A stretch of 64,000 nucleotides of DNA, taken from positions 224,001 through 288,000 of the forward strand of contig CAVWVQ010000002.1 of the NCBI GenBank assembly GCA_963758525.1, in the 5' to 3' direction. The DNA comes from an uncultured Phycisphaerales bacterium. GTDB taxonomy: Bacteria; Planctomycetota; Phycisphaerae; Tepidisphaerales; Tepidisphaeraceae. Both the position numbers and the translations under genes were made by a program. The notes under the pieces were generated by a model, which had not been told where the DNA came from, did no database searches, and worked only from the letters and a program-made list of their open reading frames with translations. This document shows, piece after piece, positions 41,630 to 64,000 of this stretch (position 1 is the first letter of the stretch; each line of letters begins with the position of its first letter).

Positions 41630-41696
41630 AGTTTCGACGCGACGCGGGGCCATCCAGAGTCGAATACCCGCCGTCGTGGACATAGGCGGGTTAGGC
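41630..41696 (-). other. attC remnant at the distal array end
   Basis: GCCTAAC containing the stop codon; tttcgacgcgacgcggggcc fragment of the attC family. Confidence 0.55.
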
Positions 41697-42251
41697 CGCA
41701 GCCAGCGGGCGACAGAAGACAAAGCGGTCGGCAGCGCTCCAATGGTGATCGGGTCCCGAGCGATAGCCTCGTAACCAGAGAACGCCTTCGATCCGGCGAA
41801 GGTAGAATCCCTTCGGTGTGGCGTCGTCGCTGGCGAGCTCGCGGGACGCAACCGTTAAGGAGCCGGGCGGCGCTCGGTGCTTTGAAGGTGGATGGCCGAT
41901 GCAGCCCTCGTGTTGGTCCATGTACTGAAGCCTGAGATGCGGAGCGAGTTCCAGAGGGCACAATAACAGACCGCATTCCGCGGCCCGGCCATGAATCTGG
42001 CGAATGCTGGCGCCCTCGGGACAGCCGAGATCGGCAACTGAAAGCTCTACGATTTCGGTATGTGAGACGGCTGGTGACGTGGTGAATTTGTCCTGCGCGA
42101 ACAAAACACGGGCACTTTCGTTGAGTTGGACCTTTGCATCATGGAGTTGAGCCAGCAGATCATCTTTGGTCACTCCGCCCACGCGAATCGTCTTGGCTAC
42201 TGCCGAGCAAATTGCATAATCGCCGACGCCTGGTTTGCAGTGGGAGTTCAT
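41691..42251 (-). CDS. Cassette-borne hypothetical protein
   Basis: LCPLELAPHLRLQY..PKGFYLRRIEGVLWLRGY; stop lies inside the R'' box. Confidence 0.75.
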   Translation of the reverse strand: MNSHCKPGVGDYAICSAVAKTIRVGGVTKDDLLAQLHDAKVQLNESARVLFAQDKFTTSPAVSHTEIVELSVADLGCPEGASIRQIHGRAAECGLLLCPLELAPHLRLQYMDQHEGCIGHPPSKHRAPPGSLTVASRELASDDATPKGFYLRRIEGVLWLRGYRSGPDHHWSAADRFVFCRPLAAA

Positions 42252-42273
42252 GGCGGCCTGATTGACGGGCACT

Positions 42274-42582
42274 TTATCCAGTCGCCGGTTTGTCGTCCGG
42301 CCACGCAGACAAGGGTAGATTGTACCACGCCTCAGCTTGTCGTTGAGCGTCGGCGACTGTGGAGTGCCAGGTATCGCCAGAGATCGAAGGTTCTGCTGAT
42401 TCGATAACCAGCAAGCAGCCGTCACCCTCGCATTCGATAGTGAACGTCACCCCGACGCTTCGCCGCGGGATTGGCTGCGGAATGGCGGCCCCGGGCGGCA
42501 GCCAGCCTGAGTGTGCTTGACCGCCGAGGGTCACGACGAAGTTAGTCACGCGGCTTACGACGCTCGAAGGCTTCCGCTGCAT
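42274..42582 (-). CDS. Cassette-borne small hypothetical protein
   Basis: ATG overlaps the GTTATG core; GDTWH..A..QA motif. Confidence 0.7.
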   Translation of the reverse strand: MQRKPSSVVSRVTNFVVTLGGQAHSGWLPPGAAIPQPIPRRSVGVTFTIECEGDGCLLVIESAEPSISGDTWHSTVADAQRQAEAWYNLPLSAWPDDKPATG

Positions 42583-42666
42583 AACGTAAGGCCGATCAGT
42601 AGTGCCGACTCACGAACCACGAGAATCTTACCCGCCGGCTCGCTCCATTGCGTTGGCGGGTTGTGG
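42583..42666 (-). other. Degenerate attC site
   Basis: aac..gatcagtag / ccattgcgtt ggcgg gtt. Confidence 0.55.
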
Positions 42667-43326
42667 GGCAGGCCGCGCAGCCACGCCCGCGAAGTTGATC
42701 GACATCGGCGCGAGCTTCAGGAGCGCTCGCGTCTGCTGCACTCGAGCCTCTGCGACTTTGCGGAACCGATTAGTGTCGGCAGCGAGCGCGTCCAACGCCT
42801 TGGCATCCTGCTTTGCTGCCAAGGTCCAGTCGTGATCGCCGTCCGCGGCGATCACTGCCGAGAAGAACCGATGCGCTTCATCGACAAGACCGCCTACCGC
42901 ACACGCGACCGCCGCGTCGAAGCTTGGCCAAAAGCCGTTCGGACGATGGCGAGAATAATGCTCTGCGACTGCGTTCACATCGTTGAACATTTTCCGGTAG
43001 CGGTTCACTTCCCCGGCCGCACGCTCCGACAGTTGATCTGACACGGTGGCGAACTGTGCCTCGTTCTCAATTCCTGCGAAGCTCTCAAGTCGGCCACCTT
43101 CATCGAACGAGAGATAGTTCTTGACCTTCCAAAGCCAGCAGCAACCAACGTTCAGATAGCTGCCCCGAGACCAACCGCTTGGCTGGAATTCAACGACGCA
43201 CAACCACCAGCCGTGATCGTCCAACCACGTACGCGACCTGCCCTTCTGCATAAGCCCCATTGGGCGCAGGATACTCCGTGCAGAACGCGCGATGAGTGTC
43301 GAATGAACTGGTGCTTCCTGCCCCAT
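42628..43326 (-). CDS. Cassette-borne protein, DUF4304-like
   Basis: Starts MGQEAP at the GTTATG core; KGRSRTW..VVEFQPS..YLNVG. Confidence 0.65.
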   Translation of the reverse strand: MGQEAPVHSTLIARSARSILRPMGLMQKGRSRTWLDDHGWWLCVVEFQPSGWSRGSYLNVGCCWLWKVKNYLSFDEGGRLESFAGIENEAQFATVSDQLSERAAGEVNRYRKMFNDVNAVAEHYSRHRPNGFWPSFDAAVACAVGGLVDEAHRFFSAVIAADGDHDWTLAAKQDAKALDALAADTNRFRKVAEARVQQTRALLKLAPMSINFAGVAARPAPQPANAMERAGG

Positions 43327-43434
43327 AACGAAGAGGACAATCGGTGGCGGCCAACGCGACGCGCCGCGGAACACTATACCAAGGACAAACTTTCGACGCG
43401 ACGCGGGGCCGTCCACAGCATTGGCTGGTTATCG
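43327..43434 (-). other. attC site (hybrid left end)
   Basis: AAC..GTT cores, stem with two extrahelical bases; near-identical to the 48039 and 52904 sites. Confidence 0.85.
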
Positions 43435-43985
43435 GGCACTTCCGGGCGGCGGGAAGGTACGCAGCTCGGCGCGGAAAGCTTGGCCTTTACGGCCGGACTG
43501 ATCGTGACCAGGTAGTCCGGCAGGGCCGTCACCGCCGGCTTGCCCGGGGACGCGAATGCGCCCGGCTCGTCGTCCCAGTTGATCATGTGCACGACAACGG
43601 ACCATTGCCCGGCCGCCAACGGCATCGCCCGTGTCGACCGCGTCACCTCCCCGGCAACATGCTCGATTCCGCCGACCGCGACCGCCCCGCGGGAGACGAA
43701 GCGGTACGGCTCGGAGGCGAGGAACAGGTATCGCCGCTCTCGCTCCGAAAGCGCAGCCACGCCCGCGCTGCTCAGACGCACCTCTACCTCCGCGACCATG
43801 TCTCGGCCGATGTTGATCGGGACGAAGTCGCCGGCCGAGATGTGCCGTGTTATGTCTGCGTCATCCTCCAGTTCCCGCGCCCACGTTTGGTAGTCATGGA
43901 CCTGCGAAAAGGCTTCCGGCGACCAGAGGGCGTGCATGCCCGCATCGGTCGCGAACGCACCACGCATGGATTCGCTGGTCGGCAT
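43374..43985 (-). CDS. Cassette-borne hypothetical protein
   Basis: Starts MPTSES; cassette ends are 12-bp complementary (gttatcgggcac / gtgcccgataac). Confidence 0.7.
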   Translation of the reverse strand: MPTSESMRGAFATDAGMHALWSPEAFSQVHDYQTWARELEDDADITRHISAGDFVPINIGRDMVAEVEVRLSSAGVAALSERERRYLFLASEPYRFVSRGAVAVGGIEHVAGEVTRSTRAMPLAAGQWSVVVHMINWDDEPGAFASPGKPAVTALPDYLVTISPAVKAKLSAPSCVPSRRPEVPDNQPMLWTAPRRVESLSLV

Positions 43986-44284
43986 CGTCTTGTGCCCGAT
44001 AACGAAGAGGACTTTATCCAGCGTGCGCCAGCGACGCCGGTACTCGCGACCGCTTGTCGCACGCTGGATAAAGTCTGTTGAACTGAACCGATTTTGGACG
44101 TCAACGCACGGGAGCAATTAGCCCGAAAAACCGCGCGCATACATTATTATAGGGGATTGTATTCATAGCATATTTCCGACAAAAAAGGCGGTGTCGCAAA
44201 CTGATAATCGCTCGTCAGAGAGAAGGCTGCGGCGATGCTTAGAGTACCGAACGCCGGGCGACTGCCCACCGCGCAGCGGTTTAG

Positions 44285-46220
44285 GTGCGCCTGCGAGCGT
44301 ACCAGCATAGAGAGGTGCAAGTCCTCTCCGGGCATAGCGTTCTCCAGCCCGTAACTGAAAGTAACTGCGTGGCCGTGAGGCCAGGTGGAGAGCAACTGGA
44401 GGTGAACGACCAGTCCGAAACACAAGTGAACTCGATTCGGCCTGAAACGGTGACGAGCCTGCCTAAAAGTGGCGAAGTCCAGACCCGCGAGGGAGCGATG
44501 CATCTTTCAAGGGAAGCCCGGTGAGCTGAAGGGTAACGTGCAGAGAGGCGACGAGCCTCTCGTAAAGCGATGCCGGGGCCGTGAGGGTGATTGGAGTCGG
44601 AATGGTTGGAAGTGCTGGTGCGTGAAGCAGGGAGACCTGTTCCGGAAAGCGAACGGAGTTCATACGCCGTAACCAGTCGGCGTCGAAGAGCCGCCGGGGC
44701 AGGAGTCAGAGCGTCCGTAGTAGCGACGAAACGCCTTAACGGGCGTGGAGCCAAGGGACGCAGGAAAGTGGATGCGGGATGAATAGACCAATGGAACAAC
44801 AATCGGCGCGAGTGCCCCGACTCGGGGCTAAGCAAGCCGAAGAATCCCATCGCATCGCGGGCGCAGGCTCGCGATGGGCATGGGCGGAACCATCGGTCTG
44901 GACAGCGCGCATGTTGCAGGCCCTTGAACAAGGGGTCAAAGGAGGCATCTGGTTCAGCCTGATTGATAAAGTCTACAAACGCAGCAACCTCTGGTCGTCA
45001 TGGAGTAAGGTGGCGGCCAACAAGGGAGCGGCAGGCGTGGACCATGTGACGGTGAAGCAGTACGAGCGCCATGTGGAAAAGCACATCGAGCATCTGACGG
45101 AAGAACTGAGGGCCGGGACGTATCGGCCCAAGGCGATCCGCCGGTGCTACATCCCCAAACCCGGCAGCGCCCAGGGGCGACCGCTGGGGATACCGACTGT
45201 GCAGGACCGCGTGGTTCAGGGCGTGCTGCGTCACGTGCTGGAACCGATCTTCGAGAAGGACTTTCACGAGCACAGCTACGGCTTTCGCCCCGGAAGGGGA
45301 TGCAAAGACGCGCTGCGTCACGTGCAGAAACTTTTGGACGACGGATACCGGTACGTGGTAGACGCGGATCTGAAAAGCTACTTTGACACGATCCCGCACC
45401 GGCAGTTAATGGAGCGGGTGAGCCAGAAGGTGGCCGACGGACGAGTGCTGAAACTGATCGAATCATTCCTCACGCAAGGCGTGCTGGAAGGACTGGACCA
45501 GTGGACGCCCGCATCCGGCGCGCCGCAAGGCGCGGTGCTCAGCCCACTGCTGAGTAACGTCTATCTGGACCCGCTGGACCATCTGATGGCCCGGCAGGGA
45601 TTCCAGATGGTGCGCTACGCGGATGACTTTGTGATCCTGTGTCAGAGCCAAGAGGAGGCCGAGCGGGCGCTGGCCGAGGTGCAACGATGGACGGCGCAAG
45701 CCGGTCTGACGCTGCATCCGGAGAAGACACGAATCGTCGATGAGCGACAAAAGGGCTTCGACTTCCTGGGCTATCACTTTGGCCAAGGTCAAAGAGAACC
45801 CCGGAGCAAGAGCCTCAAGAAACTCAAAGACACCATTCGTGAAAAGACCCAACGTCGGAACGGCACTCGAATGGTCTGCATCATCGGCACGGTCAATCAG
45901 ACGCTGCGTGGCTGGTTTGGCTACTTCAAACACAGCCGACGCGAGACGTTCGCTCCGCTGGACGCGTGGATCCGTATGAGGCTGCGAAGCATCTTGCGGC
46001 GACGCCACGGCGGGCGTGGACGTGGCGGTGGTCGTGACCACTACCGCTGGCCCAATGCATACTTTGCCAAGCTGGGACTTTTCTCGCTGTTACAAGCCCA
46101 TCGCTTGGCCTGTCAACCCGCTCGAACGGGAACCCACTGACTGGAGAGCCGGATGCGGGAGAACCGCCAGTCCGGTTCGGCGGGAGGGGAGGCCGGGAAA
46201 CCGGCCTTCCCTACCCCGAT
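44285..46220 (+). mobile_element. Group II intron (1936 nt)
   Basis: 5' GTGCG; domain V gagccggatgcgggagaaccgccagtccggttc (46146-46178); domain VI ending ctaccccgat; precise insertion without duplication. Confidence 0.95.
44779..46140 (+). CDS. ltrA: Group II intron reverse transcriptase/maturase, no endonuclease domain
   Basis: NKGAAGVD, RPLGIPTVQDR, SYGFRPGR, PQGAVLSPLL, RYADD, FDFLGY, LRGWFGYF. Confidence 0.95.
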   Translation: MNRPMEQQSARVPRLGAKQAEESHRIAGAGSRWAWAEPSVWTARMLQALEQGVKGGIWFSLIDKVYKRSNLWSSWSKVAANKGAAGVDHVTVKQYERHVEKHIEHLTEELRAGTYRPKAIRRCYIPKPGSAQGRPLGIPTVQDRVVQGVLRHVLEPIFEKDFHEHSYGFRPGRGCKDALRHVQKLLDDGYRYVVDADLKSYFDTIPHRQLMERVSQKVADGRVLKLIESFLTQGVLEGLDQWTPASGAPQGAVLSPLLSNVYLDPLDHLMARQGFQMVRYADDFVILCQSQEEAERALAEVQRWTAQAGLTLHPEKTRIVDERQKGFDFLGYHFGQGQREPRSKSLKKLKDTIREKTQRRNGTRMVCIIGTVNQTLRGWFGYFKHSRRETFAPLDAWIRMRLRSILRRRHGGRGRGGGRDHYRWPNAYFAKLGLFSLLQAHRLACQPARTGTH

Positions 46221-46223
46221 TTC

Positions 46224-46318
46224 AACGGACCAGCATTGAACGGCCGGCCGGGCTTGACCGTTTCTCGAATCACGAGGACCGTTCCGCCCGGCCGGTCCGT
46301 TCCAGTGCTTGGTTATCC
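46224..46318 (-). other. attC site
   Basis: aac..gaacggccggcc / ggccgg t ccgttc c ..gtt. Confidence 0.8.
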
Positions 46319-46822
46319 GGCACCGGCCAGTTCCGCCGGCTCGACAAGCGTGCGCTCCGTCTCAAGGTCATCGTACTGCACGAACGTGAGTGCATGCGGC
46401 TGGAGGCGCTGCAACTCTGCCAGCGAAGCATGCGCATCAGCGGTCAAAGCCGATTGGCGCAACGCCTCGAAGACCCGCCGATCCATTTCTTCATGTGCTC
46501 GCTCGAACGCGTCAGCTTCAGCTTCAGCTTCGGCATCGGGCAACTCGTAATAGAGCGCCTCCAGACACGCCACTTTCACGCCCGCGACGTTCGCGTTCCG
46601 CTTCGGGCGCTCGGGATCCGGCGAGAACCAGATCAAGCCGCTGCCAAAGCGGACGTACGCACGCAGCCGGTCCCATTCCCAATCCGGCTTCGCGCGAACG
46701 AACTCCGCAACGGCACGGGCGACGAGCGGCCACGCCTCGCTCATACGAGCGATGACGTCCGCCCAGTCCGTCACGCGGAGGTCGATGTGCAAGACGCCGT
46801 CTTTGAGCCGTTCGACGTTCAT
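46313..46822 (-). CDS. Cassette-borne hypothetical protein
   Basis: Starts MNVERL; stop in R''; ends are 12-bp complementary. Confidence 0.7.
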   Translation of the reverse strand: MNVERLKDGVLHIDLRVTDWADVIARMSEAWPLVARAVAEFVRAKPDWEWDRLRAYVRFGSGLIWFSPDPERPKRNANVAGVKVACLEALYYELPDAEAEAEADAFERAHEEMDRRVFEALRQSALTADAHASLAELQRLQPHALTFVQYDDLETERTLVEPAELAGAG

Positions 46823-46834
46823 GTGCCGGATAAC

Positions 46835-47112
46835 GAAGAGGACTTTATCCAGCGTGCGCCAGCGACGCCGGTACTCGCGACCGCTTGTCGCACGCTGGAT
46901 AAAGTCTGTTGAACTGAACCGATTTTGGACGTCAACGCACGGGAGCAATTAGCCCGAAAAACCGCGCGCATACATTATTATAGGGGATAGCATATTTCCG
47001 ACAAAAAAGGCGGTGTCGCAAACTGATAATCGCTCGTCAGAGAGAAGGCTGCGGCGATGCTTAGAGTACCGAACACCGGGCGACTGCCCACCGCGCAGCG
47101 GTTTAGTTCAAC
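46835..47112. mobile_element. 287-bp unit, copy 2 (9-bp internal deletion)
   Basis: Matches the other copies but lacks tgtattcat. Confidence 0.92.
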
Positions 47113-47206
47113 GGACCAACGTTCAATGGCCGGCACCACGCCGACCGGCTTTCAATTTACCAAAACGCCCGACGTGGGGCCGGTCCATTGCAGCGTTTGG
47201 TTATGC
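47110..47206 (-). other. attC site
   Basis: aac..caatggccggc / gccgg t ccattg c ..gtt. Confidence 0.82.
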
Positions 47207-47464
47207 GGCTGGCTCGCGGCGTGACTTTACTCGGACCCAGCACCCGTCATCGACCACCAACGAATGAAGCTTTGAACCGCCGACGGGACGCCGAAAACCG
47301 AAAGAAACCCAACGAAATCCGCGGTCGTCGATTTCACTGATCACAAGCACACGTCCACTATCGATTAACTTTCGGACAACGGCTCGCGTCGATCGCTCCC
47401 GCCATTCAGGCGACACCGCCACCATACGAATGCGATCACCGAGCTTAAGGGGTCGAAGCCGCAT
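47201..47464 (-). CDS. Cassette-borne small hypothetical protein
   Basis: ATG in the R' core and TAA in the R'' core; 87 aa. Confidence 0.7.
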   Translation of the reverse strand: MRLRPLKLGDRIRMVAVSPEWRERSTRAVVRKLIDSGRVLVISEIDDRGFRWVSFGFRRPVGGSKLHSLVVDDGCWVRVKSRREPAA

Positions 47465-47467
47465 AAC

Positions 47468-47754
47468 GAAGAGGACTTTATCCAGCGTGCGCCAGCGACG
47501 CCGGTACTCGCGACCGCTTGTCGCACGCTGGATAAAGTCTGTTGAACTGAACCGATTTTGGACGTCAACGCACGGGAGCAATTAGCCCGAAAAACCGCGC
47601 ACACACATTATTATAGGGGATTGTATTCATAGCATATTTCCGACAAAAAAGGCGGTGTCGCAAACTGATAATCGCTCGTCAGAGAGAAGGCTGCGGCGAT
47701 GCTTAGAGTACCGAACACCGGGCGACTGCCCACCGCGCAGCGGTTTAGTTCAAC
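47468..47754. mobile_element. 287-bp unit, copy 3
   Basis: gaagaggactttatcc...gtttagttcaac. Confidence 0.93.
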
Positions 47755-48041
47755 GAAGAGGACTTTATCCAGCGTGCGCCAGCGACGCCGGTACTCGCGA
47801 CCGCTTGTCGCACGCTGGATAAAGTCTGTTGAACTGAACCGATTTTGGACGTCAACGCACGGGAGCAATTAGCCCGAAAAACCGCGCGCACACATTATTA
47901 TAGGGGATTGTATTCATAGCATATTTCCGACAAAAAAGGCGGTGTCGCAAACTGATAATCGCTCGTCAGAGAGAAGGCTGCGGCGATGCTTAGAGTACCG
48001 AACACCGGGCGACTGCCCACCGCGCAGCGGTTTAGTTCAAC
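47755..48041. mobile_element. 287-bp unit, copy 4 (head-to-tail with copy 3)
   Basis: Junction gtttagttcaac|gaagaggac. Confidence 0.93.
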
Positions 48042-48152
48042 GGATGACAATCTGTGGCGGCCAACGCGACGCGCCGAGGAACACTATACCAAGGACAAAC
48101 TTTCGACGCGACGCGGGGCCGTCCACACGTCCACAGCATTGGCTGGTTATCC
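48039..48152 (-). other. attC site with an internal 8-bp duplication
   Basis: aatctgtggcggcc / ggccgtccaca(cgtccaca)gcatt. Confidence 0.82.
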
Positions 48153-48494
48153 CTGCGGCCGAGTTGCGGGGGTCGGATCATTCACAAATGGTAACCTGAC
48201 TCTGAAGGCGATCGGAGCCGGTGGAGCACTTTCCAAAACAATCCTTCGCAGGTCGGCGAGCGCAGCTTCATCGGCGACCGTACCGAAAACGCCTAGAGAA
48301 CCTTCCTGGCCTGTAAATGTTTCGAGATGCACATCCGTAAACCGCGGATCGCGGTGAAGCTTCTCCGCGAGAATCGGGATGTGATCCGCAGCTGCCCGCA
48401 TATTGATCGCTTGGTGACCGCCGGGAGAGTATGGGTAGTAGATCGCTACTGCTAGCACGACAACGCCGAGGAAGCCGTAGAGCCGCTTTCGCAT
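48147..48494 (-). CDS. Cassette-borne membrane-anchored small protein
   Basis: MRKRLYGFLGVVVLAVAIYY; stop in R''. Confidence 0.7.
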   Translation of the reverse strand: MRKRLYGFLGVVVLAVAIYYPYSPGGHQAINMRAAADHIPILAEKLHRDPRFTDVHLETFTGQEGSLGVFGTVADEAALADLRRIVLESAPPAPIAFRVRLPFVNDPTPATRPQG

Positions 48495-48840
48495 GAGCAG
48501 GGATAACGAAGAGGACTTTATCCAGTGTGCGACCAAAGCCGTGGCCAAGCCGAACCGGTTCAACGCACACTGGATAAAGTCTGTTGAACTGAACCGGCCG
48601 TCAGCTATGGGGATTGTATCGAGCTGCCGGAGCGGTGTCTCGCTCGGACTGGTGCGGGGCGCATCCGCGCCGTGAGGTGACGGGTGGGAACGGCTTTCCC
48701 GATCGACTCAACCCGGTTGGAATGTCGTCTGGAATCGCCGTTGGCGGACCGCAATCTCACGATCGGCGCGCACCATCCCCCTTGCCGCCGTGGAGCGGTC
48801 AATTGAACAACCGCGAGGATGGGCGGACGTGGCATGTGCA

Positions 48841-50004
48841 TCAGGAGGAGTCCAATCGGGCGAGGAGTTCGGCCAGTTGAAACGGCCCGAGATTCTCTCC
48901 CGGGAGCAACTGGCCCCGGCCGCACGACGGGCAGCACCGAGGTTTGGACGGGCCGGCGCCGAGCACGCCTGGAGTGCCTTCTTCCGGCTTGGTCACGGCA
49001 ATTGCCAGCAGGCGCCGGCAGTCGATCAGGTTCTGTGTTCTCACACAATTGGCCAATAGCCCGAAGTGGCGGATGCGCACGAAGCCGGAGGGAACCGCGT
49101 GCAGCAGGAACCGGCGGAGGAACTCATCTCTGTCCAGCGTCATCGTGCCTGGCCGGTTCTGGTGGGCGTAGTCTTTGTACGTGAAGGTGACGGTCTGGTC
49201 GTCCATCGCGACAAGCCTTCGGTTGGAGATGGCGATGCGGTGGGTGTAGCGACTGAGGTACTTGAGCACCTGCTCGGGCCCGCCGAACGGTGGCTTGGCG
49301 TAGACGACCCAATCGTGTTTGACGGAGAGATCGAGCAGCCGCTCAAAGCCGTCATCGTCTTCCGCGCCGATCAGCTTGCCGCTCTTGCGTGCGCGTTTGA
49401 GCAGGTCGATGAACTTGCCGCGGAAGACTTTGGAGAGCACGCGCACCGGCAGGAAGAAGCCGGGGCGGCAGCGGATCCATTTGGAGCCGTCGGGTGAGAG
49501 CCCGCCGCCGGGAACCACGCAATGCACGTGAGGATGCAGGCAGAGGTTCTGGCCCCAGGTGTGCAGGATGGACATGAAGCCGATCTTCGCCCCCAGGTGC
49601 TTTGGATTGGCCGCCACCTCCGACAGCGTCTGGCCCACGGCATCGAACAGCACGCCATAGATCACCCGTTTGTTGGCCAGCGCCAGCGCGTTGAACGTGT
49701 CGGGAAGCGTAAAGACCACGTGGAAGTATTCGATCGGCAGCAGTTCTTCTGCGCGATCTGCCATCCACCGCGCGCAGGCGGACGCCTGGCACTTGGGGCA
49801 GTGCCGGTTGCGGCAGGAGTTGTAAGCGACACGCCGGTAGTGGCAGTGATCGCACGTCTCGACATGGCCGCCCAATGCGGCGGTGCGGCAGGAGACAATG
49901 GCGCAGGATCCGCTGCTGCGCGCCGCTGAGGTTCTCAAGCCGATGGCCGTGACGTTCGATGACATCCGCCAGTTCCAGCGCGGGCGCTGGAACGGTGGCG
50001 TCAT
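48841..50004 (-). CDS. IS91-family transposase (Zn-binding + Y2 HUH); compensating indels near 49980 and 49902
   Basis: CDHC..NSCRNRHCPKC, HVVFTLP, LHTWG..HPHVH, YLSRY, RIRHFG. Confidence 0.92.
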   Translation of the reverse strand: MTPPFQRPRWNWRMSSNVTAIGLRTSAARSSGSCAIVSCRTAALGGHVETCDHCHYRRVAYNSCRNRHCPKCQASACARWMADRAEELLPIEYFHVVFTLPDTFNALALANKRVIYGVLFDAVGQTLSEVAANPKHLGAKIGFMSILHTWGQNLCLHPHVHCVVPGGGLSPDGSKWIRCRPGFFLPVRVLSKVFRGKFIDLLKRARKSGKLIGAEDDDGFERLLDLSVKHDWVVYAKPPFGGPEQVLKYLSRYTHRIAISNRRLVAMDDQTVTFTYKDYAHQNRPGTMTLDRDEFLRRFLLHAVPSGFVRIRHFGLLANCVRTQNLIDCRRLLAIAVTKPEEGTPGVLGAGPSKPRCCPSCGRGQLLPGENLGPFQLAELLARLDSS

Positions 50005-50868
50005 GTCGTTGCGGCGACTGCCTGTGGCGCGTAAAGCAGATCCAGCGGACTTGCAGCAGCGCTCAACTTGGCCTGCGGAGACGTGCAGGTAGATTGCCGT
50101 GGTCTTGATGTTGCGGTGTCCCAGCAGCACCTGGATCGTCCGCAGGTCGGTGCCCGCATCCAGCAGATGCGTGGCATAGCTGTGACGCAGCGTGTGCGGA
50201 CTGACCGGCCGCGTGATGCCCGCGCGGCGGGCGAACCGCTGCACGATCCGGCAACCTCCTCCGCCATCCTGATGGCGGGTGGGATCATCCGACTGGGGGA
50301 AGAGCCACTCGGCCGGACGCGCCTGCTTCCAGTAGTCGCGCAGCACCGCCAGCAGTTGCGGGGAGAGCTTGGCCATCTGAGCCTTGCTCCCCTTGCCGTC
50401 GCGAACGTGGATCAGCATCCGCGAACTATCGATATCCCCCGGCTTCAGCGCCAGCGCCTCGGAGATGCGCAGCCCCGCGCCGTAGAGCGTCATCATCAAT
50501 GCCTGGTGCCTGGGCTCATTGGCCGCAACCTCGAAAAGCCGGCGCAGCTCATCGGGCGAGAGGACCATGGGGAGCCGTTTGGGCCGCTTGGCGCAGGGGA
50601 GCTTCTCGAACCACTCGTCGCGCCCAAGCGTCACGCGGTAGAAGAACTGAAGGGCGCAGCGCGTCTGGTTGTAGAGGCTCCAGCTCACCTTCCGTTCCTT
50701 CACCATGTACAGCAGGTACTGGCGTACCTGTTCGCCGCTGAGTTGCTCGGGCGAACGGCCATAGTGTCTGGAGAAGTGAGCCACCGCCCGCACATAGGCT
50801 TCCACCGTGTGCGGCGAGAAGTTGCGCAGCTGAATGTCCTCGATCAGTCGTTGCCGAAGTGCCGTCAT
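50001..50868 (-). CDS. Tyrosine recombinase with N-terminal SAM-like domain (one extra base near 50075)
   Basis: GLRISE, GKGSK, HTLRHSYATHLL, LLGH, IY; true C-terminus ..SPLDLL in a shifted frame with ATGA overlap into the transposase; aggag RBS. Confidence 0.92.
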
Positions 50869-50989
50869 CAAATCGCTCCTTGTAAGAGAAGCGATCCATG
50901 ATGCCGGGCACCGATCAACGGTACGATTTTGCGGGCAGTGCAGAAATGAAGGTTACGTCTGTCCCCACCGCGCAGCGGTTTAGTTCAAC

Positions 50990-51030
50990 AGACGCGACGC
51001 GGGCCGGTCCACAGCAGCGGCTGGTTATCC
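50990..51030 (-). other. Half attC site (R''-side arm only)
   Basis: gacgcgacgcgggccggtccacagcagcggctggtt with the partner arm missing. Confidence 0.7.
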
Positions 51031-51056
51031 GGCACGCCGGGACGCCGCGACTGAAG

Positions 51057-51602
51057 TCACCCCTCCGGCACCACCATACCAAGCGTGGACAATTCGTCCG
51101 CCTCGACGCTCAACCGGAGTTGCCGATTGAACGTTTGGCCATCCTCGCGCACATCGCCGGCGAACACGAGGAAATTGTCCGGCAGCGCGAGGTCGGCGAA
51201 GTCGCCGGACCGACTTCGGGCCGCGTGCGTGACGGAACGTGAAACACGACCGACGAGTTCTTCGTTCGCGGTCATTACTGCTTGCCATTCCGAGTGCGGT
51301 GCGCCTGCGAGCGATGCCGACAGCCTCTCGTAGTAGGGCTCCATAGCTTCGCAGACAGGCTTCAAGACATCCCAGTGCCACTCGGCCGGTGCCCACCGAA
51401 CGCCTTCATCCGTCAGCATGCTCTCGGCGTTGACACCGAAGATGGGTGCCGAGATGACGGTGTAGTCGCAGTAAAGAATCCAGAAGGCGCCGGCGTAGAA
51501 AGTCTCGCCCGGGTTTTGGCGCAGCAGATCGGCAAGCCCGCGGTGGATCTCAATGGGCCACTGCGACTCTATTTGGTTGAGAAGGGCGCGGTGACGGTCC
51601 AT
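51057..51602 (-). CDS. Cassette-borne DUF4303-like protein
   Basis: ETFYAGAFW..RWAPAEW motif. Confidence 0.65.
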   Translation of the reverse strand: MDRHRALLNQIESQWPIEIHRGLADLLRQNPGETFYAGAFWILYCDYTVISAPIFGVNAESMLTDEGVRWAPAEWHWDVLKPVCEAMEPYYERLSASLAGAPHSEWQAVMTANEELVGRVSRSVTHAARSRSGDFADLALPDNFLVFAGDVREDGQTFNRQLRLSVEADELSTLGMVVPEG

Positions 51603-51619
51603 TTGTTGTGCCGGATAAC

Positions 51620-51906
51620 GAAGAGGACTTTATCCAGCGTGCGCCAGCGACGCCGGTACTCGCGACCGCTTGTCGCACGCTGGATAAAGTCTGTTGAACT
51701 GAACCGATTTTGGACGTCAACGCACGGGAGCAATTAGCCCGAAAAACCGCGCGCATACATTATTATAGGGGATTGTATTCATAGCATATTTCCGACAAAA
51801 AAGGCGGTGTCGCAAACTGATAATCGCTCGTCAGAGAGAAGGCTGCGGCGATGCTTAGAGTACCGAACACCGGGCGCCTGCCCACCGCGCAGCGGTTTAG
51901 TTCAAC
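51620..51906. mobile_element. 287-bp unit, copy 5
   Basis: Near-identical to the other copies. Confidence 0.93.
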
Positions 51907-52009
51907 GGATAACAATCTCTGGCGGGTCACGCGACGCGCCAGGGCACGTTGGACTAAAGACAAACTATCGACGCGACGCGGACCCGTCCAGAGCATTGTT
52001 TGGTTATGC
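51904..52009 (-). other. attC site
   Basis: aatctctggcgggtc / gacccg t ccagag c att; stem covaries relative to the 52904 site. Confidence 0.85.
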
Positions 52010-52588
52010 CCTCGTGCCGTCAGGCCGCTCGGGTGCTTGCAGCCCGGCTTCCTTAATGAGCGCCCGATAGCGCCCCTCCTCACCGGGGGTATCCGCCGCC
52101 GGGTGCCCTAGCAGCCGTTCAACAGGCCAGATGGCCCTATTGTCGAACCGTTCGTCGTCTAGCAAGAGCAGTAGGGCGCCCGCTTTCTGAGCGATCGAAA
52201 TCCAAGTATTGCGAACACTGGGCGACTCTTCGAAGAGCAAGCTCATACCGGTAGTAGCGGCTGTCGCTCGGAAGATCACCAAATTTCCCTCCACGATAAG
52301 GGTACTCCAGACGCACCCGATCCGGACCAGACCGTTAATCAATTTTCGCTCTGGGCTGTAAGCCTCGACTTGTCCATCAGGGGGAAATAGGAAGCCGAGG
52401 CATAGGTCTGACATGTTCTGTTCTAGGGGCGTGCGTTCTATATCCCCGAGCGGGCAATCCACGTCCGAGGGAACACAAGCAAGCAAACGACCGCTATCAG
52501 TGGGATCCAGATGTTCCGCGATAGCACGAATGACGCGGTCCGCGGACGAGCGCTCGGCAATGAGCTCGAAAGCGTAATCTAGTCCCAT
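52004..52588 (-). CDS. Cassette-borne hypothetical protein
   Basis: Starts MGLDYAFEL; ends are 13-bp complementary. Confidence 0.72.
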   Translation of the reverse strand: MGLDYAFELIAERSSADRVIRAIAEHLDPTDSGRLLACVPSDVDCPLGDIERTPLEQNMSDLCLGFLFPPDGQVEAYSPERKLINGLVRIGCVWSTLIVEGNLVIFRATAATTGMSLLFEESPSVRNTWISIAQKAGALLLLLDDERFDNRAIWPVERLLGHPAADTPGEEGRYRALIKEAGLQAPERPDGTRA

Positions 52589-52619
52589 CGTGCCACCGGT
52601 TCCGCTACGAGGGCATAAC

Positions 52620-52906
52620 GAAGAGGACTTTATCCAGCGTGCGCCAGCGACGCCGGTACTCGCGACCGCTTGTCGCACGCTGGATAAAGTCTGTTGAACT
52701 GAACCGATTTTGGACGTCAACGCACGGGAGCAATTAGCCCGAAAAACCGCGCGCATACATTATTATAGGGGATTGTATTCATAGCATATTTCCGACACAA
52801 AAGGCGGTGTCGCAAACTGATAATCGCTCGTCAGAGAGAAGGCTGCGGCGATGCTTAGAGTACCGAACACCGGGCGCCTGCCCACCGCGCAGCGGTTTAG
52901 TTCAAC
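52620..52906. mobile_element. 287-bp unit, copy 6
   Basis: Near-identical to the other copies. Confidence 0.93.
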
Positions 52907-53009
52907 GGATGACAATCTGTGGCGGCCAACGCGACGCGCCGACGGACACTATACCAAAGACAAACTTTCGACGCGACGCGGGGCCGTCCACAGCATTGGC
53001 TGGTTATTC
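52904..53009 (-). other. attC site
   Basis: aatctgtggcggcc / ggccg t ccacag c att. Confidence 0.87.
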
Positions 53010-53530
53010 GGCGACCGGTGAGCGGGTCGTGTACGGTTGAGACGGTGCCCCTTCGCTAATATAGCGCTTGGCGATTTCTTCGGCGCGGCGGCGCGCTCGG
53101 TCCGAGCCGGCATCTAAGCTGCCGAATTCAGCGTTCTCACGAATCACCTTTGCCACAGCAGGACTGTACACTAATTCTGCGCGCCAGTTGGCAAGATGCT
53201 TTGCACGCATGCTGAGTTTGATGAACCGATGCGATTTCCGGTGACGGCCCATTACGGTGACGCTCTCCCCGCCCATGCCCCAAAAGAAATCGTAGACGAA
53301 CACTTTCGCGCCGGCGCAAAATGCTTGGTCCCGCGGCGCTTCTCGACACCCCCCGGACCATAATCTCGCTCTATGACGACATTGGCGGCGACGCACCAAG
53401 CAGGTTCGGAGCCCCGATTCTCGTAACCCGGATCGATCCAGGCTGGCAGCTGAGAGCCACCGGCGATTTGAGGTGCGACGGAGGCCGGTTTTGATTTCGG
53501 ACGCAGAAATCGGAGTAGAAAGTCGAGCAT
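53004..53530 (-). CDS. Cassette-borne hypothetical protein (frameshift near 53315)
   Basis: MLDFLLR..WCVAANV..GTKHF continues as GAKVFVY..GRHRKS in another frame. Confidence 0.65.
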
Positions 53531-53553
53531 CGCTGATCGCCTCTTCGCCGAAT

Positions 53554-53642
53554 AACGTATCAACGTTCTGTGGCCGGCCGCCGTGGACTGCGGTTCTCCA
53601 ATGCCACCGTCGTGGCCGGTCCACAGCAGCGTTTGGTTAGGT
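53554..53642 (-). other. attC site of the first, ORF-less cassette (53557-53725)
   Basis: R'' ACCTAAC matches R' GTTAGGT at 53725; stem ctgtggccggcc / ggccgg t ccacag. Confidence 0.85.
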
Positions 53643-54657
53643 TTCCTGCGCAAAAGCCTATAACAACGAAAACCATCATTTGCAAGAAATACGCAAGATT
53701 ACGACATGCTTAATGGAAACCTAACTACAAATCTCACGCGCTCGGGTGCCTATAGCGGTTACGGGCAAGCCGTCGCGGCCCCCAGTATCGTCTAATTTAC
53801 ATAATTTACATAGATAGTGTCAACCACTCGCCAGAATATTGGCGGGCGAATTTCGCGCGTAGGTTAGGGCGCGTGATATTGCTGGAGCGCTTTTGGCGAA
53901 GAGAGTAGACAAAGGCAGGAGCGGGCGAGAGCCCGGCGACAAGTCGCTCGGCTCTGCGCTGGCGCGACGTGGATGCCCCCTTGGATTGGACGACGCTACC
54001 CAATGCCAGACGCAACCGTCGTTCGGAAAGCACCGCCCCCACCCCGGCCCTCCCCCCGGAGTACCAGGGGAGGGGGGAAACCGTGGAGCGAACGCTCCGC
54101 CGAAAGCGTCAGGGCGCCGGAGCATCGGGCTGCACCTGCAAGCGCAACCTTGATTGCTCGCGAGGCCCTTCCCCTTCCGCGTAAGGAAACGTCAGATCAG
54201 TCAGATATGCAAAGGCCGATGGCGAATTTGCGGGCGTGGCGGGGGCATGAGCGGGAGATTTGCTTTTTTTCGCGACGTGGATTCGTCGCGGGATCCGAAT
54301 ACTTGGAATCAGGGCATCGCTTGCGGAGGGCGTGCATGAACCTTCGGCTGCACGTTCGCGTGCGGACTTCCCCCTTCGGATCGGGGGCTCGAGTTGGAAG
54401 AGAGCGTTTGGAGCGAAGACAGTTCTTTTACGTTCGAAATCACCCTCACCCCTGCCCTCTCCCGGAATAATACCGGGAGAGGGAGAACATGCAGCGACGC
54501 TCGTCAGCCGCGGTGATTGCTCCCTCTGCTGGAAATACCCGGAGAGGGAGAAGACGCAACGATGGTCGTGCAGCTGCGGTGATCGTGCATGTCGGTGATT
54601 GAGTGGCTGGCAACCATGCGGATAATGGGTTAAAGGAACATCCGGAGTACGTATCGC

Positions 54658-57600
54658 GTGAAAACGGCTGTTGAAAGACTGGTTGGCGGAATCGTTGGGA
54701 AATTTCCGGCGGGGTACGGCAACGGACATCTGCGCCGTCGGCCGCGTTTCTCGGCGGATGAGCAGCCGTTGCGCGCGGAGCTGTTCAGCGTGGATCAGCT
54801 CGAACGGCATGCCAAGGCGCTGGCGGGCTGGCACGAGCTGGCGACGCGGCGCGGCGCCGACCGGCTGCTGCCGCGGCTGGACGAAAACGAACACGTTCTG
54901 CTGCATACGTACGATCTGGTCACCAGGGCGGCGGAGGACAGTCGCCGGATCGCGCCGGCGGGGGAATGGCTGCTCGATAATTTCTATCTGATCGAAGAGC
55001 AGATTCGCACCGCCCGGCGGCACTTGCCGCGGGCGTACAGCCGCGAGCTGCCGGCGCTGGCCAACGGGCCGGCGGCGGGGTATCCGCGCGCGTATGGGAT
55101 CGCGCTGGAGCTGATCTCCCACGTTGACGGCCGGCTCGATGCGGCCAGCCTGCGCGGGTTTATCGCGTCTTACCAGTCGATCCAGCCGCTCACGCTCGGC
55201 GAGCTGTGGGGCGTGCCGATCATGCTGCGGCTGGCGCTGATCGAGAACCTGCGCCGCGTCGCCGCGCGGATTGCCGCGGGTCGGCAGGATCGCAACGTCG
55301 CCAACGAGTGGGCCGACCGCATGGTCGCGATTGTCGAAAAGAATCCGACGGATCTGATCCTGGTGCTCGCTGACATGGCGCGGGCGAATATTCCGCTCAG
55401 CAGCGCCTTCGTCACCGAACTCACCCGCCATCTGCACGGCCAGAGCCCCTACTTCGGCTTTGCCACAAGCTGGATGGAACATCGCCTGCAGGATCAGGGT
55501 CTGGCGATCGAACAGCTTGTCCAGACGGAGAATCAGAACCAGGCCGCCGACCAGGTTTCCATCGGCAACAGCATCACGAGCCTGCGGTTTCTCAGCTCGA
55601 TGGATTGGCGCGACTTCGTCGAGGAGATGAGCGTCGTCGAGCAGATCCTTCGCGGCGAGCCGGCGCGGATTTATCCCGCGATGGATTTCGCGACGCGCGA
55701 CCGCTACCGACATTCCGTCGAGGCGATTGCCAAGTGCAGCAAGCTGACCGAATTCGAAGTCGCGCGCAAGGCGGTCAAGCTGTGCGAGATGGTTTCTGCC
55801 GATCAGGCGAACGAGATTACCGGTCACGTCGGGTATTACCTGATCGACAAGGGCCGGCCGGCACTGGAGCGCATTGCGGAGATGCGGCTTTCGCCACGTC
55901 TGATCGCAAGCAAGTTGCGCCGCCGCTTTCCGATGCCGCTCTATCTGGGCGCGGTGCTGCTGATCACGCTTGCCGCGACCATCGGTCTGCTGATCTGGTC
56001 GCATCGTCATGGCATCGGGGCCTTGGGCCTTTCGCTGCTGGGAATCTTCGCCGTGGTCGCGGCGATGCATCTGGCCGTCGGGATCGTCAACTGGCTGGCG
56101 ACGCTCACCGTTGCGCCGCATCCGCTGCCGCGAATGGATTATTCGGAGGGAATTCCGCCCGAGTGCAGCACGATCGTGGTCATTCCGACGATGCTCACCT
56201 CAACGGCCGCGATCGAGAGCCTGCTCGAGGGCGCGGAAGTTCGTTACCTGGCCAATCGCGACGCCAACGTGCGCATCGCGCTGCTCACGGACTTCAAGGA
56301 CGCCCGGCAAGAGACGATGCCGGAGGACCAAGATCTCGTTCGCCTGGCGGCAGAGGGAATTGAACGGCTCAATCGCAAGTATGCCGGGGACCGCGCGGAT
56401 ATTTTCTATCTGTGCCACCGCCCGCGGCGGTGGAATCCGCAGTCTGAGCGATGGATGGGTTATGAACGCAAGCGCGGAAAGCTGGCGGAGTTCAACGCGC
56501 TGGTGCGCAACCGGCCCGCGCTGGGAAGCTCCAACGGCGAGGAGGTTGTCCACGGCCCGCGCGACCAGTTCAGCACCATCGTCGGCGATATCGCCGCGCT
56601 GCGCGACGTGCGCTATGTGATCACCCTCGACACCGACACGCAGCTTCCCCGCAACGCCGCCCGCGAGCTGGTCGGGACGATGGCGCACCCGCTCAACCGC
56701 CCGGTGATTGACGAAGAGCTCGGCCGCGTGATCAACGGCTATGCCATTCTGCAACCGCGCGTCGGCGTGAGCCTGCCGAGCGCCTCGCGCTCGTGGTTTG
56801 TCCGGCTCTTCGCCGGTGATCCGGGAATCGACCCGTACACGCGCACCGTCTCCGATGTCTATCAGGACGTTTTCGGGGAAGGGTCGTTCATCGGCAAAGG
56901 CATTTACGATCTGGACGCATTCGACCAGACCTGCAGCAACTTCCCCGAAAACACCGTTCTCAGCCACGATCTTCTGGAGAGTTGCTACGCGCGCTCGGCA
57001 CTGGTCAGCGACGTGGAATTGTTCGAGGAGCACCCCTCTCTCTACACCGCTGACGTCAATCGCCGGCATCGCTGGATTCGCGGCGACTGGCAGATCGCCC
57101 CGTGGCTGTTGCCCACGGTTCCCGCCGCCGATCACAAGACCGTTCCCAATCCACTCTCGGCGCTTTCCCGCTGGAAGATTTTCGACAACCTGCGGCGCAG
57201 CCTCGTCCCGATTTGCCTGATGGTGATTCTCGCGGGCGGCTGGATCGCAGCGATGTTCGTTCCGACCGTTACCGGGCCTCGGCGCCTTTCGATTGCTGGC
57301 ATCACCACTGTTTTCTCGCTGGCGGTGATCGCGCTCCCCGCGCTGCTGGCGCTGACCCTCGATCTGCTCAACAAGCCGTCCGATATGAGCGTGAGCCTGC
57401 ATCTGGGGAATTCGTCCACCAGCGTATGGCGGCAACTCGCGCAACTGCTGCTGGCAATCACGTTCCTCCCGTACGAGGCATACATGAGCGCCGACGCGGT
57501 GATCCGCACGCTCACCCGAATGCTCTGGACGCACCAGCGCCTCCTGGAATGGACCACCTCCAGCGACGCCGAGCGCCGAGCCCGCACCGATCTCGCGAGT

Positions 57601-63600: not shown

Positions 63601-63610
63601 AATGCCATAA
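54658..63610 (+). CDS. ndvB: Cyclic beta-1,2-glucan synthase (GT84 + GH94), frameshifts near 57990, 59800 and probably 63590
   Basis: EWLLDNFY, GYERKRGKL, TLDTDT, SHDLLE, RWIRGDWQ, LLASEARL, YQSGGAYGFRDQLQD, GDWNDGMN, RENGGQYTH. Confidence 0.92.
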
Positions 63611-63710
63611 AACTCAATTCCGTCGCTCTTCCAAGCTTGCGCGGGTTGTGATCGCCTCGCCTGCCTTGCGGCTTTCCCTCCGTGCCTTCGTGCCTCCGTG
63701 CCTCTGCTTT

Positions 63711-64000
63711 TTACGGATTAAACTTCTTCACAATTTCCGAGATCGCTTCCTTCCGCGCATCGCTGGCCTTTTGATAGACCGGACTTTTTTCGGCAGCATA
63801 GAGAGCGTCGTTGTCCACGTTTGCGGTCACTTTCTGCAACAGCGCAGCAGGTGTCGTGCAGTCCTTCACGAAATCATCGGAGACGTTGCGGAGCGTAATA
63901 CCGCTGTCCGTTTGATCGACCCGGCAAACGGTGTACCGGTCTTTCTGCCTGTCCGGCTCAAGCTCTACCGACGGATTCATCGTTTGCAGCGTGATGAACC
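63711..64000 (-). CDS. Hypothetical protein, 3' part
   Basis: Open frame entering from the window edge. Confidence 0.5.
   Translation of the reverse strand, partial: FITLQTMNPSVELEPDRQKDRYTVCRVDQTDSGITLRNVSDDFVKDCTTPAALLQKVTANVDNDALYAAEKSPVYQKASDARKEAISEIVKKFNP

Follow-up and report, generated by a model that had tools for sequence, protein, structure and literature searches.

The window analyzed here, 64,000 nucleotides of a contig from an uncultured Phycisphaerales bacterium (CAVWVQ010000002.1, positions 224,001 to 288,000), contains an integron array in which six short repeated units, the minis, and one 2,482-bp element encoding a tyrosine recombinase and an IS91-family Y2 HUH transposase occupy the junctions between cassettes 1 and 7, all joints lying at G/TT. 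We propose that the long element is a transposon of the IS91 type whose architecture follows that of an integron cassette. The anatomy of the units, the hairpin that each of them carries, their boundaries, the conservation of these features across the family and the classes of target sites can be read directly from the DNA. As to how the units move, we favor, with somewhat better than even confidence, a mechanism in which the HUH transposase copies out the bottom strand and the element's own IntI-like recombinase then inserts the folded junction of the resulting circle at the G/TT core of attI and attC sites, the minis being non-autonomous relatives.

Units at the cassette junctions carry their own attC-like end

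Coordinates are positions within the window, and the array is read on the minus strand. The six minis are 96-100% identical and stand in the order given by the original prediction, a model's reading of the same DNA, including the tandem of mini4 and mini3. The uniform length of 287 bp that it had proposed applies to five copies (mini1 counted without its intron), mini2 being 278 bp long. It had also placed the units at the cassette core with no duplication beyond the triplet, and we found this at every boundary: all are G/TT on the minus strand and share nothing further. The end assigned to each unit, gtttagttcAAC, stands with the exception of mini1, which is not in one piece and is split by a 1,936-bp intron.

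At its 3' end, every mini and the long element has an attC-like site of its own, consisting of an R'' arm (GTTCAAC), one base, an 18-bp perfect stem, a 6-nt spacer and GTT. The unit start, GTTGAAC, complements this R'' at seven of seven positions in all units (mini1 without the intron), and the pairing extends over seven more bases. Where mini4 meets mini3, the joint folds into a long hairpin (z = -9.3; 0/200 shuffles were as stable), of which the bottom strand is slightly more stable and continuous via a G-T pair. This genomic joint would correspond to the circle junction predicted by the model. The units thus share with attC sites an R'' AAC and an R' GTT that are complementary in the circle, the G/TT crossover and a bottom-strand hairpin; extrahelical bases and a balanced central spacer, in contrast, are absent from the perfect 18-bp stem, which is flanked by 1 and 6 nt. 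The host attCs of the array do show extrahelical bulges.

The left end of the units (GAAC, 4-5 nt and a palindrome) has the layout of terIS in canonical IS91-family copies (L210-L212), and the ori-like motif within them, AATCCCCATA, resembles the right-end motif of such copies. Canonical oriIS lies at the very right end and abuts a GTTC/CTTG target; here the motif lies ~110 nt inside, and the right flank is GTTA in 6/7 window units. The element therefore works like both an IS91 transposon and a cassette and is a full member of neither, since it departs from IS91 in its end and target and from attC in its lack of extrahelical bases. The minis carry private single-nucleotide polymorphisms (SNPs), and further SNPs are shared by mini6 and mini5 and by mini4 and mini3, a pattern that fits local copying and ordered filling alike and decides nothing between them.

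Layout of the array

The array extends from about 53900 to about 41630, beyond the limits of 44001..53556 originally given, with an attI-like head and ten cassettes (0-9); the head keeps a stub of the first intI codons on the plus strand, and intI itself has been lost. Its features are as follows (ORF, open reading frame).

53725..53900, minus strand: attI-like entry site, with 76% identity across 170 bp to intI-adjacent sequence on another contig of the genome, C1, and to a second copy there
53823-53794: Pc-like promoter in the head, TTGACA-18-TAAATT (promoter scan: 1 found against 1.4 expected by chance)
53556..53724, minus strand: cassette 0, ORF-less; host attC with R' GTTAGGT and R'' ACCTAAC
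52906..53555, minus strand: gene cassette 1; host attC, R'/R'' 7/7; no Pfam or NCBIfam match
52619..52905, minus strand: mini6, 287 bp; terIS-like left end, ori-like motif at 52775, own attC-like hairpin from 52699
51906..52618, minus strand: gene cassette 2; host attC, 7/7
51619..51905, minus strand: mini5, 287 bp
50989..51618, minus strand: gene cassette 3; left half of attC only, fused to the long element; attC scan score 0
48507..50988, minus strand: long element, 2,482 bp; ends as in the minis
50001..50868, minus strand: tyrosine recombinase gene, IntI-related; C-terminus frameshifted near 50077, natural stop deduced from the reading frame
48841..50004, minus strand: IS91-family Y2 HUH transposase gene; N-terminus frameshifted near 49984 and 49900
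48041..48506, minus strand: gene cassette 4; host attC, 7/7
47754..48040, minus strand: mini4; joint with mini3 at 47754, the predicted circle junction
47467..47753, minus strand: mini3, 287 bp
47112..47466, minus strand: gene cassette 5; host attC, 7/7
46834..47111, minus strand: mini2, 278 bp; a 9-bp deletion removes part of the ori-like motif
46226..46833, minus strand: gene cassette 6; complete host attC, 7/7
44003..46225, minus strand: mini1, split by the intron after its fifth base
44285..46220, plus strand: group II intron, class IIC type; reverse transcriptase (RT) at 44779-46140, TIGR04416 404 bits; RF00029 at 46144-46220
43329..44002, minus strand: gene cassette 7; attC ends in the element tail (CTCTTC before GTT), not in a host spacer
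41630..43328, minus strand: cassettes 8 and 9, element-free; last attC truncated

Gene cassettes 1-7 each have R' and R'' matching at 7/7 positions, and their start, GTTnnnn, complements R''. The stretch previously read as 'mini2 - gene - mini1' is in fact a gene with its attC, followed by the intron. The element tail at 43329 may be the footprint of an eighth, excised copy; this tail, the intron in the left end of mini1 and the 3' hairpin of each unit had been missed by the original prediction.

None of the 11 ORFs tried in cassettes matched Pfam or NCBIfam, Rfam gave no attC match and no RNA family for the minis, and the promoter scan of 51600-53950 found none in the minis and none other than that in the head. 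Cassette 0 (53556-53724) is an AT-rich first cassette with a complete attC, in which the consensus scan gave no promoter. Two half attC sites (window 50989-51030 and C1:204808-204860) retain the left half only and are joined at the loop to an element left end, as in adjacent deletions.

The long element and its two proteins

The long element has only its ends in common with the minis, 26 bp on the left and about 80% identity over 96 bp on the right, and its hairpin differs from theirs by a compensatory C-G to T-A change. The claim of a recombinase/HUH-transposase parent is thus upheld as far as both genes are concerned; because only the ends are shared, the element is a relative of the minis rather than their literal parent.

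All six catalytic residues of the recombinase are present (R134, K159, H225, R228, H251 and Y260). It scores 193 bits against the TIGR02249 cutoff of 265 and lacks the ~31-residue insertion by which IntI binds the extrahelical bases of attC. Recombinases linked to IS91 elements are likewise reported to lack the IntI insertion (bioRxiv 10.1101/542381). The transposase matches PF04986 (210 bits), NF033538 (418 bits against a cutoff of 125) and PF14319 (above cutoff), and contains HPHVH, YLSRY and a zinc finger.

As called, the two genes form one 676-aa fusion ORF. We rejected a real fusion: the three indels that produce it are missing from relatives, intact relatives encode separate genes, and the fusion is probably an artefact of the indels. 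Sequencing error and decay are indistinguishable here because a neighboring gene is broken as well; this large glucan-synthase-like gene (window 54634-63900) is spread over three reading frames, which points to indel errors in the assembly.

Conservation of the hairpin in relatives

To this family we assigned 31 genome loci found through the transposase, together with plasmid copies. The layout is shared, among the loci listed, by Acidobacteria, Phycisphaerales, Clostridium, Sphaerochaeta, Maribacter, Rhizobium and Paraburkholderia. A script located 22 right ends; AAC and the stem are 1-2 nt apart in 16 of them, and the spacer measures 6 nt in 13. For the hairpin alignment we used 18 of these 22 (three bulged stems and one near-duplicate were left out) with mini6 and the long element. 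In these 20 right ends, 85.5% of the cells are paired, against 29-44% in slid controls, and 15/21 pairs have changed on both sides, a value reached in 0/500 shuffles, with the caveats that relatives are not independent samples and that the structure was taken from the window copy. The hairpin thus appears to be selected as a structure and to travel with the element rather than with the host. We also considered that the hairpin is a host attC and that the element ends at R'', and rejected this parse for the present lineage: every copy, whatever its site, is followed by the same hairpin, which has homologues in other phyla.

Complete minis of 280-480 bp also occur elsewhere. We inspected 24 selected left ends that had no full recombinase and counted seven such minis in six metagenome loci, including one tandem pair, and three more probable ones, most of the others being stubs. 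Minis of unrelated hosts retain the ter- and ori-like motifs. A class-wide pattern search was positive in 4/301 genomes, our own included, and no relative of the element was found among viral contigs. At L160:1200-1530, a short gene stands directly before an ori motif and hairpin, behind which another left end begins; this may be a unit that carries cargo.

Target sites and crossover register

Scanning metagenomes with the 24-nt left end yielded 120 loci, from an estimated total of about 670, with a pattern that fixed TT and to which variation in TT is therefore invisible. With two genome loci added, the base preceding the 124 left ends is G in 108, A in 13 and C in two, and one is preceded by nothing. 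After removal of 28 short and three duplicate flanks, 93 left flanks remained. Twenty of them scored as attC (controls: 0.5% of 1,500 and 1.6% of 306), seven lie 180-210 nt behind a co-directional intI and were taken as attI, and 16 of the other 66 are attI-like by resemblance (shuffle mean 0.06). In total, 43/93 flanks are attC- or attI-type, the attI type being about as common as attC. The targets are wider than attC alone, and in hosts without detected IntI the insertions are at other short sites.

The register of the crossover could be read from closely related copies. Two 100%-identical Paraburkholderia copies differ in the base before TT on the left and are constant on the right, and one copy lies in a 9-bp tandem repeat that is restored only if the cut falls after base 1 or 2 of the triplet. 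The third triplet base varies on the right in L016, L072, L078 and L029. These observations suggest a crossover in the IntI register, not at the GTTC boundary of terIS. There is no target-site duplication: left and right triplets differ in L016, L072, L078, L206 and L207, and the repeat in L207 is restored without one. The first triplet base is equal at both junctions in 30/35 elements read by eye (22/23 and 8/12; one mis-called row was dropped). IntI1 requires first-base identity of the crossover triplets, according to PMC2811028.

IntI over the cutoff was found in 0/5 draft genomes with relatives and on 0/5 plasmids carrying them (plasmids only, chromosomes not searched). Three Rhizobium copies, 99.9-100% identical, occupy different sites in the absence of detected IntI. 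The relatives yielded no empty allele of a non-integron target, although no search was aimed at joined empty-site patterns.

Several further loci deserve mention. In L013, L011, L016 and L208, from hosts with no detected IntI, the two flanks taken together make up short inverted repeats that resemble a simple core site of a tyrosine recombinase (by eye, no control). Rhizobium and Ensifer copies (L202-L205, L209) appear to lie inside the ends of other insertion sequences. At L047:1-860, a left-end stub stands behind a co-directional intI and is followed by a two-gene cassette, which from its motifs resembles a toxin-antitoxin pair.

A model for movement and its alternatives

In the mechanism we favor, the HUH transposase would nick the right boundary and copy the bottom strand toward the terIS-like left end, giving a circle whose end-to-end junction would fold into the attC-like hairpin. 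The element's recombinase would then carry out the exchange of a single strand with the core of a double-stranded attI or attC site, leaving replication to complete the insertion; both enzymes would be supplied to the minis in trans. Copy-out keeps the donor in place, so copies would pile up until nearly every array junction is filled, and tandems would arise since the element's own junction is also a target. The IS91 substrate is described as a bottom-strand single-stranded circle (PMC13181058), the strand that folds best here. IntI is reported to pick the attC strand by its extrahelical bases (PMC2727003), which makes a recombinase lacking the IntI insertion a good match for a site that has no bulges. 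The original prediction had offered the integration of folded circle junctions into attC cores as one of two models, and this is the one best supported by the mini4-mini3 joint, the terIS-like end and the IntI register, with the amendment that the targets are wider than attC.

A number of points weigh against this mechanism. In 31/32 ends, 8-45 nt separate the ori-like motif from the R'' arm that follows it; the motif is ~110 nt from the boundary, unlike in canonical IS91, and with it so far away the initiating nick could not be located. The genome's only Y2 transposase, that in the window, is frameshifted as assembled, and an integron integrase (338.8 bits) is present in the host. Of the flanks, 50/93 fit neither the attC nor the attI assignment; 3 of the 20 attC flanks resemble element-type hairpins; and our home-made attC scan missed one real window attC (score 9.0). 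The first-base rule is broken by 5/35 elements (three from Paraburkholderia, L197 and L048). The lack of IntI rests on five draft genomes and on plasmids without their chromosomes, and the related elements are not independent samples. No circle joint was seen among the metagenome contigs compared with the window, which carries no weight.

One alternative, named by the original prediction as fatal to its own view, is that the units are ordinary cassettes, ORF-less or two-gene, moved by host IntI only, with the element's enzymes as passengers. We consider this unlikely. It accounts for the perfect cassette borders and for the C1 array, where two more minis lie near an intI over the cutoff, and ISShvi3 is said to form 'a new gene cassette structure' (PMC9229058). 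The hairpin, however, has no extrahelical bases and a 1/6 spacer; the ter- and ori-like motifs, useless to IntI, are retained in minis of unrelated hosts; and a frameshift near codon 38 is common to the two intI copies of the host. This alternative is further weakened by the near-identical copies that occupy several sites on replicons without detected IntI.

Two other schemes divide the labor of the enzymes differently, and we judge each of them to be a little less probable still. In one, the recombinase excises and integrates, and the HUH enzyme only replicates the circle, where the GTTC nick site and the ori-like motif meet. The integrated bottom strand has GTTC at the left end only, the spacing between ori motif and boundary is variable, and the footprint at 43329 suggests removable copies, all of which this scheme would explain. 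A non-xTT triplet in 6/25 left junctions found via the protein is nevertheless easier to understand if circles inherit the right-junction triplet, as in copy-out, a weak argument as some of these triplets are matched in R''. In the other scheme, of similar standing, the HUH transposase alone makes and inserts the circle as in classic IS91, the hairpin being just the oriIS palindrome and the recombinase an accessory. The crossover within the triplet rather than at the GTTC boundary, a right flank that differs from the tetranucleotide after canonical copies and the strong bias toward attI and attC cores argue against it, whereas the terIS-like left end and L052, which has a left end and a transposase and no recombinase gene, are in its favor. 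Also in its favor, canonical IS91 inserts single-stranded circles by TnpA alone (PMC13181058).

In the second model of the original prediction, which is very unlikely, the junction between two minis serves as the capture site for a gene cassette, and growth of the array involves copying of the unit. This model draws on the strict alternation at 7/7 junctions between cassettes 1 and 8, with the footprint counted, and on a junction that is a well-formed site. Such alternation needs no capture mechanism, because with eight independent insertions the probability that 7 or more of 11 slots become occupied is 0.25 (0.057 for filling at attI, a weak discrimination). Moreover, the cassettes are ordinary and complete with host-type attCs, members of a family also found in runs without minis on C1, and an attI-like site of its own heads the window array.

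That the repeats are an assembly artefact, which would have undone the original prediction, is close to negligible. The assembly does have indels (three in the element, and the split glucan-synthase-like gene), and a search for the source reads, against which the whole array could have been checked, was negative (best share 0.09). Against an artefact stand the private SNPs of the minis, flanks that differ and carry 7/7 cassette borders, a count of only 2 differences in 949 nt between window 43999-44947 and an independent soil-metagenome contig (run X3), and the occurrence of this anatomy in complete genomes.

Beyond the favored mechanism, we tentatively entertain an extension that we hold to be less probable than not by a good distance: once an array is full of minis, read-through of the left end by the HUH enzyme might copy a mini and the neighboring cassette as one circle, which the element's recombinase would insert into other arrays, so that cassettes would spread without IntI, the leftover hairpins would become new attCs, and the elements would be a living intermediate between rolling-circle transposon and integron. 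Such co-mobilization is hinted at by cassette 7, which has traveled together with mini1 and the intron (see below), and by a solo hairpin that separates cassettes at C3:101273-101365.

Comparison with known systems

Within the IS91 family, a tyrosine recombinase gene is also found upstream in ISAzo26, ISSod25, ISMno23 and ISCARN110. The elements ISShvi3 and ISWz1 are reported to have the same two-gene layout, with an IntI-related recombinase lacking the IntI insertion. Elements of this kind are thus already known, and ISShvi3 has once been seen beside an attC inside an integron (PMC9229058, in part). The portions of the ISShvi3 and ISWz1 accounts that concern them describe no hairpin at the element's own end, no attI/attC targets, no role for the recombinase and no minis. 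Our literature search, which took in few subscription papers and neither ISfinder nor TnPedia, found no account of the mechanism, of a hairpin belonging to the element, of attI and attC as its targets, of minis or of an intron that homes to it.

With canonical IS91, IS801 and IS1294, the element shares the Y2 HUH transposase, a terIS-like left end, an ori-like motif, the absence of target duplication and a predicted bottom-strand circle; it differs in the ~110 bp attC-like hairpin between ori motif and end, the crossover inside GTT, the extra recombinase and the lack of a GTTC/CTTG target. With integron gene cassettes, ORF-less ones included, the units share the AAC...GTT borders, the G/TT crossover, a long hairpin and the array orientation, but they have no extrahelical bases, a spacer of 1-2 / 6 nt, a 14-bp R box extension and their own enzymes, and they are present where no IntI is detected. 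Like IS1111-attC elements and group IIC-attC introns, they are parasites of integron sites; unlike IIC-attC introns, they insert at the R' crossover with the orientation of the array and leave a new site behind.

A parallel exists in CTX-phi and the integrative mobile elements exploiting Xer (IMEX), in which a tyrosine recombinase acts on a folded single-stranded site by one strand exchange followed by replication. Those elements use host XerCD at dif, whereas the long element encodes its own recombinase. CTX-phi and IMEX elements are mentioned in PMC9345347; the sections of that paper, PMC5737581 and PMC8876359 bearing on this topic contain nothing on an own hairpin, attI/attC targeting, minis or intron homing.

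If our reading is true, these elements are a third class of parasites of integron arrays, entering attI/attC cores and themselves parasitized by a IIC intron, and automated annotation could overestimate the number of attC sites because of them. Where attC sites and the single-strand chemistry of IntI came from is an open question, and IntI's closest cousins here are paired with an enzyme expected to make single-stranded DNA circles and with a bulge-free attC-like end. The 287-bp mini is a minimal substrate (left end, ori-like motif and hairpin), so that the division of labor between the enzymes is directly testable.

A group II intron in mini1

The 1,936-bp intron (44285-46220) interrupts mini1 between TTAG and TTCAAC, and its site is preceded by a small hairpin of the element left end, ACCGC-GCA-GCGGT. 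It has the stem-loop and RT-maturase features of group IIC. Four full copies in the genome, 99.9-100% identical, all lie at TTAG/T in an element left end, one of them in a long-type left end on C3, and a partial copy has the same position. A related intron on a contig of run X1 adjoins the start of the recombinase gene, and relatives occur in 21/351 genomes of the phylum (our own included) downstream of hairpins like terminators or repetitive extragenic palindromes (REP; read by eye). IIC-attC introns enter attC at R'' (TTGT/T), opposite to the array direction (PMC7923331); the window intron is not at such a site. Because its copies sit at the element left end and its relatives behind terminator- or REP-like hairpins, it is a IIC-type intron homing to the element rather than a IIC-attC intron, and it would home to the small left-end hairpin after the element has inserted.

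Other copies in this genome

The array on C1 contains two more minis with an intI over the cutoff beside it, and decayed right ends of the element mark cassette borders on C1, C2 and C3. The frameshift near codon 38 is found in both intI copies (C1:197972-199040 and 205950-206290), the second of which is cut by a REP-associated-transposase-like element (C1:205196-205977) with several relatives in the genome. Cassette 7 is the only window cassette duplicated elsewhere (1/10): it recurs on C1 with mini1 and the intron, at 99.75% identity over 2,851 bp, and traces of the element stand at the far end of this segment in both arrays. The solo element hairpin at C3:101273-101365 lies between two diverging cassette starts, with a tail on both sides, and is readable as a site either way. 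A second family of small derivatives, in which the first recombinase codons are fused to a palindromic repeat, occurs at C3:122016-122290, 124520-124799, 4029980-4030186 and 2143316-2143500, and two of these extend to the ori-like motif.

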